NCBI GenBank assembly: GCA_951406725.2
Contig: OX597837.1
Span: 16,492,001 to 16,556,000, forward strand
Reading direction: 5' to 3'
Length of the DNA stretch: 64,000 nt
Source of the DNA: Octopus vulgaris
Taxonomy: Eukaryota
This document shows, in pieces, positions 13,578 through 58,562 of this stretch (positions within the stretch are counted from its first letter, which is position 1; every line of letters begins with the position of its first letter). A program made the position numbers and the translations under genes. The notes beneath the pieces are model-generated. The model did no database searches, had not been told where the DNA came from, and saw only the letters and a list, made by a program, of their open reading frames with translations.

Positions 13578-14763
13578 ATCATCATCATCATCATCATCAT
13601 CGTTTAGCGTCCGTTTTCCATGCTAGCATGGGTTGGACGGTTCTACTGGGGTCTGGGAAGCCAGAAGGCTTCATCAGGCCCAGTCAAATCTGGCAGTGTT
13701 TCTACGGCTGGATGCCCTTCCTAACGCCAACCACTCCGTGAGTGTAGTGGGTGCTTTTTACATGCCACCCGTACAGGTGCCAGACAGAGCTGGCAAACGG
13801 CCACGAACGGATGGTGCTTTTTACATGCCACCGGCACGAGGCCAGTCGGGGCGGCGCTGGCAACGGTCGTGAAACGGAAGGTTCTCTTACATGCCACCGG
13901 CACTGGTAACACATCTGCAATTTCCATTGATCGATTTCGATTCTGATCCTCACTTGCCTCAACAGGTCTTCACAAGTAGAGTTTTGTGTCCCAAGAAGGG
14001 AAGGTATGCATACGTAGGCTGGCTCCATCCCATGTAGAAGGCCACGTGTTATGGACTCACTTGTCCTGCCGGGTCTTCTCGTGCACAGCACACTTCCAGA
14101 GGTCTCGGTCTCTAGTCATTTCCTCAGTGAGACCTAAACTTCGAAGGTCGTGCTTCACCACCTCGTCCCAGGTTTACCTGGGTCTGCCTCTTCCGCAGAT
14201 TCCCTCAACCGCTAGGGTGTGGCACTTTTTCACACAACTATCTTCATCCATTCTCACCACATGACCATACCAGCGCAAACGTCTCTCTTGCACACCACAA
14301 CTGATGCTTCTTAGGTCCAGCTTTTCTCTCAAGGTACTTACACTCTGCCGAGTATGAGTACTGACATTACACATCCATCGGAGCATACTGGCTTCATTTC
14401 TTGCGAGCTTACGCATATCCTCAGCAGTCACGGCCCATGTTTCACTGCCATGTAGCATGGCTGTTCGTACACACGCATCATACAGTCTGCCTTTCACTCT
14501 GTGCGAGAGGCCTTTTGTCACCAGCAGAGGTAAGAGCTCTCTGAACTTTGCCCAAGCTATTCTTACTCTAGCAGTTACACTTTCAGCACACCCGCCCCCG
14601 CTGCTGACTTGGTCACCTAGGTAACGGAAACTGTCAACTATTTCTAGTTTTTCTCCCTGGAAAGTGACGGAAGTTGGTCTCAGAGCATTTTCAGTGTTTC
14701 TTGTTCCTGAGCATCTGCCACAAACAAAAACCATCTTCCTAGTTAGCCTTCTTTTGACATTGC
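13578..14763 (-). mobile_element. RTE-clade LINE, 5'-truncated: end of PHD, RT C-terminus, full 3' UTR and (ATG)n tail
   Basis: ORF 14174-14734 with FRYLG, RLYDACVRTAMLHGSETW, RRLRWYGHV and GRGRPR; closely similar to 57830-58545. Confidence 0.92.
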
Positions 14764-49699: not shown

Positions 49700-50020
49700 T
49701 TACCGCATCGCCTTACTAGCACTTGTGCTGGTGGCACGTGAAACATTTGAGCGAGGTCGTCGCCAGTGCCGCTGGACTGGCTCCTGTGCAGGTGGCACGT
49801 AAAAAGCACCATTTGGGCGTGGCCATTGCCAGTTCCACCAAACTGGCTCTCGTGCCGGTGGCACGTAAAAGCACCCACTACACTCTCGGAGTGGTTGGCG
49901 TTAGGAAGGGCATCCAGCTGTAGAAACTCTGCCAGATCAGATTGGAGTCTGGTTCGCCAGACCTTAGTCAAATCATCCAACCCATGCTAGCATGGAAAGC
50001 AGACGTTAAATGATGATGAT
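49700..50020 (+). mobile_element. RTE 3' UTR fragment ending in the (ATG)n tail
   Basis: Reverse complement of the 13580-13910-type sequence. Confidence 0.85.
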
Positions 50021-50574
<554 letters not shown>

Positions 50575-51137
50575 GGAACACACATGTTAAATGATGATGA
50601 TATTTATACTTAGATATATAGAAAACAAAGTTATTTTATTCCATATGAGTAGAAATACAGGAAAAATAGAAGTTGAAAATGCAATGAGAATAGTTAAAAT
50701 ATATTTTTATAATTATATTTAAGGATTTAACCAGTTTCACAGTTTACACTGATTTTCAAAAGATTGAAATAGAAAAACATGGCTTCTGTTGCAGCTGTGT
50801 TGCTTCTAAGTAGTGTTTCAAGCTGACCTTATTTTGATATGGAGTTCAAGTCTGAAATTAGTATAATGCTTTGAATAGAGTTTGATTGGTAGAGGATAGT
50901 CACATGACTGGTCTTAGAAATGTTTGTGGGTTCCCTATGTCAGTGTGATAGTATTATGTGACATTGTTTAGCGTTGTAAATTAAGGCTGACACTTAACTT
51001 AAGACATCTAGAGGCCATGGTTGAAGCCAATGGTGATTCTATTGAATAAATTTACTCTTTTCATTTCTGCGTAATTTAGACAATTTATTCACTGCACACT
51101 GTCTATATACATACACACACACACACACATATATATA

Positions 51138-51920
51138 TCATCATCAACGTTTAGCGTCCGCTTTTTATGCTAGCATGGGTTGGACGGCTCAACTGGGGTC
51201 TGGGAAGCCAGAAGGCTGCACCAGGCCCAGTCTGATCTGGCAATGTCTCTACGGCTGGATGCCCTTCCTAACGCCAACCACTCCGTGAGTGTAGTGGGTG
51301 CTTTTTACGTGCCACCGGCACAGGTGCCAGACAAGGCTGGCAAATGGCCACGATCAGATGGTGCCCCCTACACGCCACCGGCACGAGGCCTACCAGGGCA
51401 GCGCTGGCAACGGCCACGCTGGGATGGTTCTCTCACGTACCACCGGCACTGGTATCACAGCTGCAATTTCCATTGATGTTGATCAATTTCGATTTTGATT
51501 TTCACTTGCCTCAACAGGTCTTTACAAGTAGAGTTTTGTGTCCCAAGAAGGAAAGGTATGCATAAGTGAACTGGCTACATCCCATGTGGAGGCCACGGGT
51601 TATGGTCTCACTTGTCCTGCCGGGTCTTCTCACGCACAGCATACTTCCAAAGGTCTCGGTCTCTAGTCATTTCTTCGGTGAGACCTAAACTTCGATGGTC
51701 GTGCTTCACCACCTCGTCCCAGGTTTTCCTGGGTCTGCCTCTTCCACAGGTTCCCTCAACCGCTAGGGTGTGGCACTTTTTCACACAACTATCTTCATCC
51801 ATTCTCGCCACATGACCATACCAGCGCAAACGTCTCTCTTGCACACCACAACTGATGCTTCTTAGGTCCAGCTTTTCTCTCAAGGTACTTACACTCTGTC
51901 AAGTATGAACACTGACATTA
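51138..51920 (-). mobile_element. RTE LINE 3' fragment (C-terminal ORF plus 3' UTR)
   Basis: ORF 51608-51883: RRLRWYGHVARM...GRGRPRKTWDEVV...DRDLWK. Confidence 0.9.
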
Positions 51921-51989
51921 CAATGAACACTGACATTACAATGAACACGAATAAATAAATGGAGTTGAACGAAGATGTTAATAAAATTT

Positions 51990-52076
51990 CTTTACTTTCG
52001 ACATATGTTTCGAAGACAACATGGTTTTATTCCAAAGGAATAAACAGTGTAAGATGCAATTTTCTCATCAGGAAAG
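51990..52076 (-). ncRNA. Type I hammerhead ribozyme, intact core (left arm of inverted repeat)
   Basis: ctttc-CTGATGA-gaaaat...gtcttc-GAAA-catatg-TC-gaaag on the minus strand; one mismatch in stem II. Confidence 0.8.
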
Positions 52077-52434
52077 AGAGCCTCTCTCAACAACAAGACA
52101 TTATAACAATTACAATTAAAGGGATAATAAGTAGGGAACAAATAGAGGGGGAGTGATACATTGATTAAAAGAATGTATACTTTGAACAATTAGTTTAACT
52201 TGCACTTCACTTCAATAGAGGAATTTTTTCCCAAGCCTTTGAACATTCTTTTAATCAACGTATCACTCCCCTTCTATTTGTTACCTACTTATTATCCTTT
52301 TAACTCTTCTCTTCCTACTATCTGCCTTTGACATCAAATCTACTAACGGTTTTTTTAAATACTTAATAACATTCTGTTTATCATGTAGGCAGTCATCGTA
52401 ATTGTTATAATGTCTTGTTGTTGAGAGAGGCTCT

Positions 52435-52525
52435 CTTTCTTTCCTGATGAGAAGACTGCATCTTACACCGTTTATTCCTTTGGAATAAAATCATGATGTC
52501 TTCGAAACATATGTCGAAAGTAAAG
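52435..52525 (+). ncRNA. Type I hammerhead ribozyme, intact core; predicted cleavage after GUC at 52515
   Basis: ctttc(52439-43)-CTGATGA(52444-50)-gaagac...gtcttc-GAAA(52504-07)-CATATG-TC-gaaag. Stem II is extended by tttattcc-ttt-ggaataaa; stem III is palindromic. Confidence 0.88.
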
Positions 52526-52919
52526 GAATTTTATTAACATCTTCGTGCAACTCCATTTATTTATTCATCTATAACACACAAATTACTGCACATTAACCCA
52601 GAGTTTCTATCTTTGGATAGGTCGCTTCAACCGTGTTTCTGACGTGAATTTGCTACCCTGGTAACGGTTCATTGAATTTTCCATGTTAACGGTTAACATA
52701 GGATAATTCGTTCACCCATATATATATATATACACACACACACACCCCACACACTTTCTTTCAGTTTCCATTTGCGAAATCCACTCATAAGCCTTTAGTC
52801 AGCCCAAGTTGACATGCAGTGGAACTGAACCCAGAAGCATGTAGTCAGAAAGTAATCTTCTTACCACATACTGACACCTGTAAAATGACAAAGCTATTTT
52901 ACTAAACTTTTCATTTTCT

Positions 52920-54540
52920 AACAGAACTAGAGGAGAAGTTTCAAGTGTGAAAACAAGGATTAGAATCGAAGGGCCTTAGAGTCAACCTAGCTAAAACCAT
53001 AGTCCTAATATGTAGGAAGGCAGGCAAACCACAAATCGCTTCAGGTAGATGGCCCTGCTCAATCTGTAGAAAAGGTGTAGGTAGAAACTCTATAAGATGT
53101 ACCCAGTGTAAGCTATGGACACATAAGAGGTGCAGCAATATCAAAGGAAGGCTAACTGGGAGGATAGTTTTCATATGTGGCAGATGCTCAGGAGCTATAT
53201 ATAACACTGAAAATGTGCAGAGAACAACTCCCACCATGTTCCAGGGAGAAAAACTAGAAGTAGTTCATAGCTTCCGTTACCTAGGTGACCAAATCAGTAG
53301 CGGAGGAGGGTGTACTGAAAATGTACACATGGCTGTTCGTACACATGCATCGTACAGTCTACCATGTATGCCATGGAAACCCCTGACATGCTGTCCAACA
53401 TGTCCATTGAAATCAACAGCCACAAAGAGAAGGTCCCTGTCATTCGTCAACGCGGTAGTCTGCAAGAGGGTGTCATAGAATCGGTCTTTCTGTCCATCAG
53501 GTAGCCCTGGCTGAGGGGCATAGGCTGAGATAATGGTTGCTAACCCATGGTGGAGCACTAATCTAATCTTAAGTATTCTGTCGCATACTCTGACTACCAC
53601 AATTACCTTATCTACCCATTTCTGCACAAGAAGTATACCCACACCCCCAACCCCGTCAGAGTTCACTGCCCAGAAAGTGTACCTGTGTTTTTTGCCTATG
53701 AGGAACCTAGCAGAACCTCCTCTCCACCTAACTTCTTGGATGCAGCACATATCAACACATCTCTGTTCAAGCATCTCAACAATCTCACCAGACCTACTTT
53801 CAGTGTGCCCATGTTGAGAGTGCCAACCCTGAGGGTGTGGAAGGTATGGGACCTTGAGACCCTGGGGCAGGGGACAGTGGTGTCATGTACCTTAAAAGAG
53901 AGCTCACATTTGGCAGGATTCATAGACAAAACAACAATAGACTTAAGTTCAAACCGCGTAAACCACACTATCATATTTTGCATTGTATGATCACTACCTT
54001 GTATAGCAGGGTGTGGGGGTGGCGTAAGCCTTTAGAAGTGTTCATGGGAGACAATCAAGGATGACAAAATTGGGACTTCCGGTACAGGTGGAGTGGACGG
54101 GAGTACCGTGAAAACTAGCAGCCATGAAGGGAAGCATCTCTTGGGGAAGGTATTTTATCGTTGTAGGTATTAAGAGACATAAATGAGAGAGAGATAGTTA
54201 ATTTAACGGGACAGCAAATGTTGATAATAGTAAATAGAATTTAAGAATCTGATAGCCAGTCTAAGATGAAATTGGAGACTAAATGTCTGTGTGATGGACT
54301 TTCATGAATGAGGGAATATGTTGCAGATTTAGGGGAAATGCATGAGCTAAATTTATCTTAGACATCGATAAGTAAGAAGGAACTATAGAGTTATATATTT
54401 AACATGAAGGCGTGAAGCTGAAATAGATGGAGTAAAACAGAATAGAGATAAACTAATGAGGGTTAATCAATTGCGCACAAATAGTACAAGGTAGTTAAAT
54501 GGGTTGAATTTAAAGGAATGCTCTACACTTAAATGGAATC
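52920..54540. mobile_element. Rearranged RTE LINE: 5' UTR and APE endonuclease (minus, about 54540-53360) fused to an RT scrap and an inverted PHD/RT piece (plus, 52920-53325)
   Basis: RVGTLNMGTL, CIQEVRW, GVGILL, ISAYAPQ, DFNGHVG (APE), then GRLYDACVRTAM; plus-strand WPCSIC...FRYLG. Confidence 0.88.
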
Positions 54541-56665: not shown

Positions 56666-58562
56666 AGAGAGAATCGTGATGTGGTAGGAGAGAAATGTGT
56701 TCGCATGGATGATGGTTCACTTGCGCTAAATGTGACTGCAAAGAGAGAGGTTTGAAGACGCCACTATGAAAAAGTTGCTGAATAAAGAAAATGAATGGGA
56801 GAAAGGGAGTCTGCCGAATGTCGACCCAACTGAGGGACCAGCTATCCGAGTTGACAGTACCTTGGTAGATAAGGTAATTAGAAGTATGAAGACAGGAAAA
56901 GCCCCAGGCCCATCAGGAATTACTGCAGAGATGCTCAAAATATCTGGCGGTGTTGGCTATAGCCTAGTCACCCATATAGTTAACCAGTTGATACACGAAG
57001 GAGTCATACCCAATGACTGGTATAGCAGCATACTAGTCAACTGCTACAAAGGTAAAGGTGACGCCCTAGATACAAATAATTACAGAGGTATCAAACTGTT
57101 GGATCAGGTAATGAAGGTTACGGAGTGGGTCATAGCCCAACTAATTAGAGAGAGAGTTAGTTTAGATGAGATGCAGTTTGGATTCGTGCCAGGGAAAAGC
57201 ACCACTGATGCCATATTCCTGGTAAGACAGCTGCAGGAGAAATATCTAGCCAAAGATAAGCCCCTGTACCTGGCTTTTGTTGACATGGAGAAAGCCTTCG
57301 ACGGGGTCCCCTGATCCCTCATCTGGTGGTCAATGAGGAAACTAGGGATAGATGAATGGTTAGTGAGAACTGTGCGAGCCATGTACAGGGACGCTGCTAG
57401 TATGGTGAGGGTTGGCAACAAGTACAGTGAAGAATTCCGGGTAGAGGTAGGAGTTCACCAGGGTTCAGTCCTCAGCCCACTCCTATTTATCGTAGTCCTC
57501 CAGGCAATAACAGAGGAATTCAAGACAGGATGCCCCTGGGAGCTCCTCTATGCTGATGACCTTTCTCTAATTGCTGAGTCACTATCAGAACTGGAGGAGA
57601 AGTTTCAGGTGTGGAAGCAAGGATTAGAATCGAAGGGCCTTAGAGTCAACCTAGCTAAAACCAAAGTCCTAATAAGTAGGAAGGTAGACAAGTTACAAAC
57701 GCTTTCAGGTAGATGGCCTTGCTCGATCTGTAGGAAAGGCGTAGGTAGAAACTCAATAAGATGCACCAAGTGTAAGCTATGGACACATAAGAGGTGCAGC
57801 AACGTCAAGGGAAGGCTAACTAGGAAGATAGTTTTTGTATGTGGCAGATGCTGAGGAGCAATAAGCACTGAAATTGCGCAGAGAGCAACTTCAGCCACAT
57901 TCCAGGGAGAAAAACTAGAAATAGTTGATAGCTTCCGTTACCTAGGTGACCAAGTCAGTAGCGGGGGCAGGTGTGTTGAAAGTGTAACTGCTAGAGTAAG
58001 AATAGCTTGGGCAAAGTTCAGAGAGCTCTTACCTCTGCTGGTGACAAAGGGCCTCTCGCACAGAGTAAAAGGCAGACTGTATGATGCATGTGTACAAACA
58101 GCCATGCTACATGGCAGTGAAACATGGGCCGTGACTGCTGAGGATATGCGTAAGCTCGCAAGAAATGAAGCTAGTATGCTCCGATGGATGTGTAATGTTA
58201 GTGTTCATACTCGACAGAGTGTAAGTACCTTGAGAGAGAAGTTGGACCTAAGAAGCATCAGTTGCGGCATGCAAGAGAGACGTTTGCGCTGGTATGGCCA
58301 TGTGGTGAGAATGGATGAAGATAGTTGTGTGAAAAAGTTCCACACCCTAGCTGTTGAGGGAACCTGTGGAAGAGGCAGACCCAGGAAAACCTGGGATGAG
58401 GTGGTGAAGCACGACCTTCGAACTTTAGGTCTCACCGAGGAAATGACTAGAGACCGAGACCTTTGGAAGTATGCTGTGTGTGAGAAGACCCGGCAGGACA
58501 AGTGAGTCCATAACACGTGGCCTTCTACATGGGATGGAGCCAGCCTATGATGATGATGATGA
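56666..58562 (+). mobile_element. RTE-clade LINE, 5'-truncated, near-intact RT with PHD insert; two in-frame TGA stops
   Basis: KAPGPSG, YRGIKLL, QFGF..GKST.DA, FVDMEKAFD, GVHQGSVLSPLLF, YADD, FRYLG. ORFs 56766, 57333 and 58041 share one frame; (TGA)n tail. Confidence 0.95.

Follow-up and report, generated by a model that had tools for sequence, protein, structure and literature searches.

A head-to-head pair of 5'-truncated, hammerhead-bearing repeat copies, probably left by one Penelope-like insertion at a TA microsatellite

The available parts of the literature on Penelope-like elements (PLEs) describe insertions in which an inverted truncated copy lies adjacent to another copy and a tail of 30-40 bp is present at one end (Craig et al. 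2021; PMC8557442). The inverted copy is 5'-truncated and the tail one-sided also in the account of Arkhipova et al. 2013 (PMC3846280), in which self-priming is proposed for the head-to-head junctions, and a curation guide gives the same insertion pattern (PMC8969392). In vitro, both target strands are cut and then extended by a PLE protein (Frangieh et al.; PMC11167929), and the tail is described as what lies between two sites at which the RT can start (PMC11167929). Targets of the form (TA)n are reported for the Hydra and Naiad clades, and the Neptune clade has a microsatellite bias (PMC8557442). Dual minimal hammerheads on opposite strands, 100-700 bp apart and linked to truncated PLEs, were reported by Cervera and De la Pena in 2014 (PMC4209133). 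As excerpted, an Octopus vulgaris annotation contains 31 recently active Penelope-like families (PMC13282606), and the family described here may therefore already be catalogued in a repeat library.

The stretch of 64,000 nucleotides analysed here (the window) is AT-rich, with many TA/CA microsatellites and LINE fragments. Self-comparison and arm alignment bear out the proposal of an earlier note that the window contains a fold-back: a left arm (51949-52176) is the reverse complement of a right arm (52243-52566), with identity at 216 of 228 aligned bases and 12 substitutions, of which nine are transitions and three are transversions. Relative to the right arm, the left arm has gaps of 92 nt (52303-52394) and of 4 nt near 52434; the extra length of the right arm that had been put at about 94 nt is thus real, its exact figure being 92 nt. 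The predicted fold of the whole unit has an energy of -388 kcal/mol (z = -34.8 against 20 shuffles). The two copies lie head to head with both 3' ends facing outward, and their 5' ends abut at a junction near 52176/52177, target DNA between them being absent. The left copy (51949..52176, - strand) is inverted, 5'-truncated and tailless, is without the 92-nt internal segment, and stops at the first (short) 3' end of the family. The 66-nt centre (52177..52242, + strand) is not a spacer but a further-upstream part of the right copy; it is followed by the part of the right copy that is mirrored by the left arm (52243..52568, + strand), which includes the 92-nt family segment missing from the left arm (52303..52394, + strand) and reaches the first 3' end, and then by an extension of 151 nt (52569..52719, + strand), termed the tail below, which ends at the second 3' end of the family and has a terminal hairpin at 52674-52709. 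An element of about 620 bp had been claimed; the fold-back stands, but its right boundary was misplaced, as family sequence continues to 52719 and makes the unit asymmetric and about 770 bp long. No long frame was found within the element, truncated copies not being expected to retain one, and neither a second copy of the fold-back nor a direct (tandem) copy was found elsewhere in the window.

In its 5' truncation, its shorter inverted copy joined head to head, its tail at one end and its likely microsatellite target, the locus resembles the complex insertions of EN+ PLEs as the available parts of two papers describe them (PMC8557442, PMC3846280); it is unlike them in that it has no ORF between the arms, a tail of 151 nt versus 30-40 nt, and no readable target-site duplication. 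The insertion layout is thus one already published for PLEs, and the occurrence of a single hammerhead on each strand was likewise published in 2014. A still closer counterpart among the sequences in supplementary Files S1 and S2 of PMC8557442, so far as these were available, is Penelope-13_HM of the Hydra clade, which shares the (TA)n target, the 5'-truncated inverted copy at the 5' end and a hammerhead on both strands; unlike the present locus it retains coding sequence, and it has a short helix II and a different sequence (PMC8557442). Hydra-1_Obim and Naiad_Obim, from what is likely the same host genus, also have (TA)n targets (PMC8557442 supplement), and both were rejected as parents by eye, the hammerhead row of Hydra-1_Obim and the last lines of Naiad_Obim differing from the family here in the available text (PMC8557442). 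None of the core motifs of the window was found in the available part of the PMC8557442 supplement, where line breaks could hide a match.

The distribution of the repeat was examined in four public runs with three organism labels (X1, X2, X5 and X7), which were aligned to 52177-52712 at 80% likeness. Part of the stretch is contained in 20 of 24 listed runs, but the best share of its words is 0.34 and no run has half of them, so that the family majority may reflect other species or subfamilies. No RNA run is named among those containing it, which has no bearing on expression. All four runs yielded family contigs (2504, 844, 2200 and 163), and in all four the summed depth, which is not copy number, is 18-65 times greater over the ribozyme than over the first three (5') bins; the first tail bins have 0.19-0.53 of the ribozyme-bin depth. 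The rise in depth from 5' to 3' is the pattern expected of 5' truncation. The 66-nt centre is covered in all four runs, in the same sense as the right arm; a same-strand joint in X7 connects it to the ribozyme side with 46 letters on the short side, and record 25 of X7 reaches 26 letters beyond 52242, which is below the 31-letter bar. Opposite-strand joints make up 5 of the 13 joints listed and lie at five different position pairs, each joint being one contig per run and contigs being a measure of presence, not of absence. The 13 include neither the centre joint of this locus nor the 92-nt deletion of its left arm. Judged from the contigs, the 92-nt difference is a deletion in the left copy and not an insertion in the right, because many contigs in all four runs cover the segment and its skip is not among the listed joints. 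As a spliceosomal intron the gap was rejected by eye, GT-AG ends being absent on both strands. In X1, two joints omit the letters between 52246 or 52250 and 52299, and near 52300 the depth rises; the skips and the depth step hint at subfamilies without the 52231-52299 segment. A pattern scan for relatives gave no matches in viral contigs and three in metagenome contigs, which were taken as chance, similarity to the element being absent; two of the three are one stretch within a long prokaryotic frame that looks helicase-like by eye.

The earlier note suggested a non-autonomous ribozyme-bearing mobile unit, and these data bear on the reading that the fold-back is itself such a unit, whether MITE-like or a non-autonomous double-hammerhead element, and spreads with fixed ends. 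Its inverted arms are long and clean, one inverted joint in X5 begins at 52177 (which is also the first letter of the reference), and, in the accessible text of the sources, non-autonomous PLE partners are known (Chlamys-N4, PMC9977147) and retrozymes are described as PLE derivatives (bioRxiv 10.64898/2026.07.22.740005). Against this, the ends are asymmetric with a tail on one side only, depth rises steeply from 5' to 3' rather than being flat, five inverted joints other than that of this locus are present among those listed, where the joint and the deletion seen here occur in 0 of 13, and the window is without a second copy. A mobile fold-back is therefore very improbable, other copies being joined at other positions, and a MITE or fold-back DNA transposon is contradicted by the asymmetry of the ends, by the gradient of truncation and by inner joints that vary between copies. 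Metazoan non-LTR retrozymes are likewise short, non-coding and PLE-linked and carry a type I hammerhead, but in the available descriptions they form head-to-tail tandem arrays whose monomers are cut between two sense ribozymes (PMC7229834; bioRxiv 10.64898/2026.07.22.740005); a retrozyme was rejected here, the window having two opposite-strand motifs only and no tandem unit or direct copy.

The tail is linked to the family by 5 of the 32 records shown, from three runs, which span 52568/52569 and have 31 or more letters to either side of it; these records carry 12-27 differing letters and therefore represent other copies. Loose ends, for which the evidence is 24 of 450 rows, define two 3' ends of the family. 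At the first, near 52568, loose ends behind 52557 lead into AT-rich DNA in 13 contigs of X1 and 11 of X2; at the second, near 52719, loose ends behind 52709 lead into (TA)n in 38 contigs of X1, 31 of X5 and 4 of X7. The first of these ends is that of the left copy; the right copy has the second, 151 nt beyond. The tail folds no better than its shuffles (z of -0.91 and -1.64). No PLE tail beyond 30-40 nt was found in the available parts of the literature searched, most subscription papers and Repbase aside, and the 151-nt tail is, like the 53-nt helix II described below, an atypical feature.

In all four runs, depth within the tail peaks at 52627-52662; 6 of the 13 listed joints are at 52645-52649, and loose ends before 52624 have different upstream sequence in two runs. 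The segment 52627-52719 may be an end module of 70-75 nt that results from a preferred stop, or may belong to a second, short family that has this 3' end in common. The hexamer AACGGT occurs 3 times in the element (52345, 52663 and 52688) out of 8 in the window on both strands. Positions 52342-52368 resemble the 5' flank of the Penelope-15_HM hammerhead row as accessible in print, with 23 of 27 letters matching by eye; the segment is AT-rich and the resemblance possibly due to chance.

On the right, the element is followed by a (TA)n/(CA)n microsatellite (52720..52753), which is likely the target site, a similar context being found 3' of other copies. On the left, it is flanked by a 5'-truncated LINE copy (51137..51922, - strand) that is outside the element and whose 3' end adjoins a TA/CA microsatellite (about 51104-51138). 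This LINE has 90% identity over 788 nt to 13590-14371 and 94% identity over 353 nt to 58191-58543, and frames of its family match Pfam RVT_1. The left junction (51905..51948) consists of an 18-nt LINE-derived unit repeated about 2.4 times, which abuts the left arm and sits exactly at the 5' truncation point of the LINE; the repeats suggest slippage during joining. The left junction shows neither a TA tract nor a readable target-site duplication, and for the element as a whole no duplication can be read either. The left end being at the LINE 5' junction and not in (TA)n, either insertion may have come first. The three highest identities of a neighbouring LINE RT frame among 75 homologues (83, 81 and 76%) are to Octopus bimaculoides, which makes an octopus the likely host. 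No Pfam match was obtained for 147 non-LINE frames (the longest among 435 frames of at least 45 aa), among which no host exon was recognised, and a sigma-70 scan, irrelevant to a eukaryote, gave matches at chance level. Elsewhere in the window, LINE 3' ends at 49725-50028 and 51129-51449 point towards one another, with a compound TA/CA microsatellite (about 550 bp) between them, and form a second, weaker inverted pair (75% identity over 327 nt), the 3' UTRs of these LINEs having repeats spaced 61-66 nt; at 52918-53900, a + strand LINE fragment is followed directly by - strand LINE pieces in an inverted arrangement.

The hairpin could also have arisen after or apart from a single insertion, by two independent insertions at one spot, by DNA inversion or template switching, or as an assembly chimera. 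The family is abundant and targets microsatellites, so that neighbouring copies are likely, and the left arm is set apart by a deletion of its own and by a flank that has been rearranged. The arms themselves were compared at the 20 listed variant places inside them, among 40 rows of 104. At three of the 20 (52265, 52271 and 52296), both arms have a letter that is absent from at least 90% of the family depth; these shared rare letters favour one template and one event, with the reservation that the runs may be from other species. Of the 12 arm differences, 7 are places where the left arm has the letter of the family majority and the right arm has another; the other five are outside the listed rows, and three of these are C-to-T changes at CpG in the left copy. 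Taken by their sequence, the differences look like independent neutral decay rather than selection for pairing or catalysis. The shared rare letters are evidence against separate origins, as are the direct meeting of the 5' ends without interposed target DNA and the one-tail pattern of published single PLE events (available parts of PMC8557442 and PMC3846280), and 12 substitutions and two gaps exclude a simple one-molecule fold-back chimera. A separate origin of the hairpin is accordingly improbable.

A hammerhead descriptor applied to both strands of the whole window gave exactly two type I matches, at 52444-52515 on the + strand and 52071-52000 on the - strand; when the window was dinucleotide-shuffled 100 times, the loose descriptor had an average of 0.03 matches per shuffle and the strict descriptor none at all. 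CUGAUGA, GAAA and GUC are present in both motifs, whose stem I is 5 bp long, whose helix III is palindromic and whose core boxes are 53 nt apart. In the right motif (52439..52520, + strand; core 52444-52450 and 52504-52515; predicted cut at 52515/52516), the conserved core nucleotides and all three helices are present, and the long helix II domain of 53 nt (52451..52503, + strand) has a 6-bp base, a short extension, an internal loop and an 8-bp hairpin. In the left motif (51995..52076, - strand; predicted cut between 52000 and 51999), the core is complete but helix II has only three pairs before an A-C mismatch at the fourth, so that the description of an intact hammerhead on each strand is correct for the two cores and incorrect for the left helix II. 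A fold model without tertiary terms predicts a monomer hammerhead fraction of 7e-7 for the left motif versus 3e-3 for the right. A private change of the right arm at 52456 converts a U-G pair of helix II to C-G. No variant is found within the 19 core positions among the 40 of 104 rows listed, where about 1.4 would be expected by chance, too small a difference to argue for core conservation. Judged by eye, the letters at loose ends before 52498 (6 contigs in X1, 7 in X5) could extend helix II to 11 pairs, provided that this subfamily keeps the majority 5' strand; these letters hint that the long helix II is structural. Rfam, to which the earlier note had looked for confirmation, gave no hammerhead match at the gathering threshold in the whole window or at E-values up to 10 in 51700-52900, and matches below the cut-off were to generic hairpin (miRNA) and snoRNA models only, the miRNA matches merely reflecting the hairpin.

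As described in the accessible text of PMC4209133, the minimal hammerheads of metazoan PLEs agree with these motifs in being of type I, in the 5-bp helix I, the G10.1-C11.1 pair and the palindromic helix III, and in their occurrence as opposite-strand pairs 100-700 bp apart. The helix II domain of 53 nt is longer than in the PLE hammerheads tabulated in the available PMC8557442 supplement, where loop 2 reaches about 35 nt; there is precedent for a long loop 2 in PLE-X1_sMoe (about 35 nt) and PLE-X1_sTam (about 29 nt; PMC8557442 File S2).

It had further been proposed that folding of the RNA switches between self-cleavage and a long dsRNA substrate, or that the unit is a cleavage element within a host intron. 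The completeness of both hammerhead cores, the change of a helix II pair from U-G to C-G at 52456 and the likely octopus host, a member of a group with very high hyper-editing (PMC5625713, in part), are points in favour of a functional RNA switch of this kind. Nevertheless the antisense arm would be transcribed first in both directions, with the core complement at 61 versus the sense core at 505 for the + strand and at 206 versus 650 for the - strand, and forcing stems I and II to form is predicted to cost +96 or +106 kcal/mol relative to the duplex. As a transcript carries a single sense motif, it has no dimer partner in cis; according to the available results, single minimal hammerheads of PLEs are not cleaved in vitro and dimers are cleaved weakly (PMC4209133), and an Anolis PLE hammerhead needs protein and is dispensable for insertion (PMC11167929). 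The left helix II is broken, and the differences between the arms resemble neutral decay. A switch or intron element is thus extremely improbable; as to a host intron in particular, the lack of a recognised exon neither shows nor excludes one, and the arms are in ordinary decay. The long dsRNA hairpin expected of read-through RNA is upheld by the folding predictions. If the locus is transcribed, a duplex editable by ADAR is plausible; in the available text, Penelope copies are heavily edited in lizard and the hyper-editing signal of octopus is extreme (PMC5625713). Places with A>G and T>C number 10 and 18 in X7, which is guessed to be RNA, versus 9-11 and 19-20 in the DNA runs; the numbers are alike and show no editing signal, though they come from contigs, which are unsuited to the detection of editing.

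The best account of the locus is that two 5'-truncated copies of the 3' end of an abundant, hammerhead-bearing repeat are joined head to head, probably as the product of a single PLE insertion at a TA microsatellite, and have probably been inert since then. That the repeat is a PLE can be inferred from structural features, no RT or GIY-YIG frame being tied to the family. Present are a type I hammerhead near the 3' end with a minimal palindromic helix III; a dispersed family with strong 5' truncation; an adjacent inverted 5'-truncated copy whose junction varies between insertions; and two 3' termini and a one-sided tail, though 151 nt rather than 30-40 nt apart. As to the target, (TA)n is found at the right and after other copies, with a LINE junction at the left. 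The Penelope-like link that was drawn from the minimal type I hammerheads, inverted termini and dimer-type palindromic helix III fits all of this evidence. In the proposed mechanism, the PLE RT/endonuclease would cut the TA tract at the target, after which either target-primed reverse transcription would begin at two internal sites of the RNA, one for each target strand, or one cDNA would fold back and be recopied; both products would stop early and be joined at their 5' ends. The hammerheads would be passengers of the 3' end of the element. In tandem transcripts of the parent they may act as dimers or with the help of protein, and in read-through RNA of this copy the predicted duplex of about 230 bp would block them. 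It is possible, though on balance doubtful, that this is an octopus PLE family with RT starts 151 nt apart, a distance some four times that of the usual tail, a frequent stop about 70 nt from the far end, and a 53-nt helix II that is missed by Rfam and by short-helix descriptors.

The single locus matters little in itself, as it is a textbook by-product of Penelope-like insertion. The family may be of modest value: a long tail makes the two-start-site model for the RT of PLEs testable over a wide interval that is easy to map, and the hammerhead with a long helix II suggests that descriptor searches undercount the ribozymes of PLEs. Abundant head-to-head pairs could supply substrates for editing in cephalopods. 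If the reading as a two-site PLE with a long helix II is true, the family would provide ready-made fold-back dsRNA, so far uncounted, in a genus with extreme A-to-I editing.
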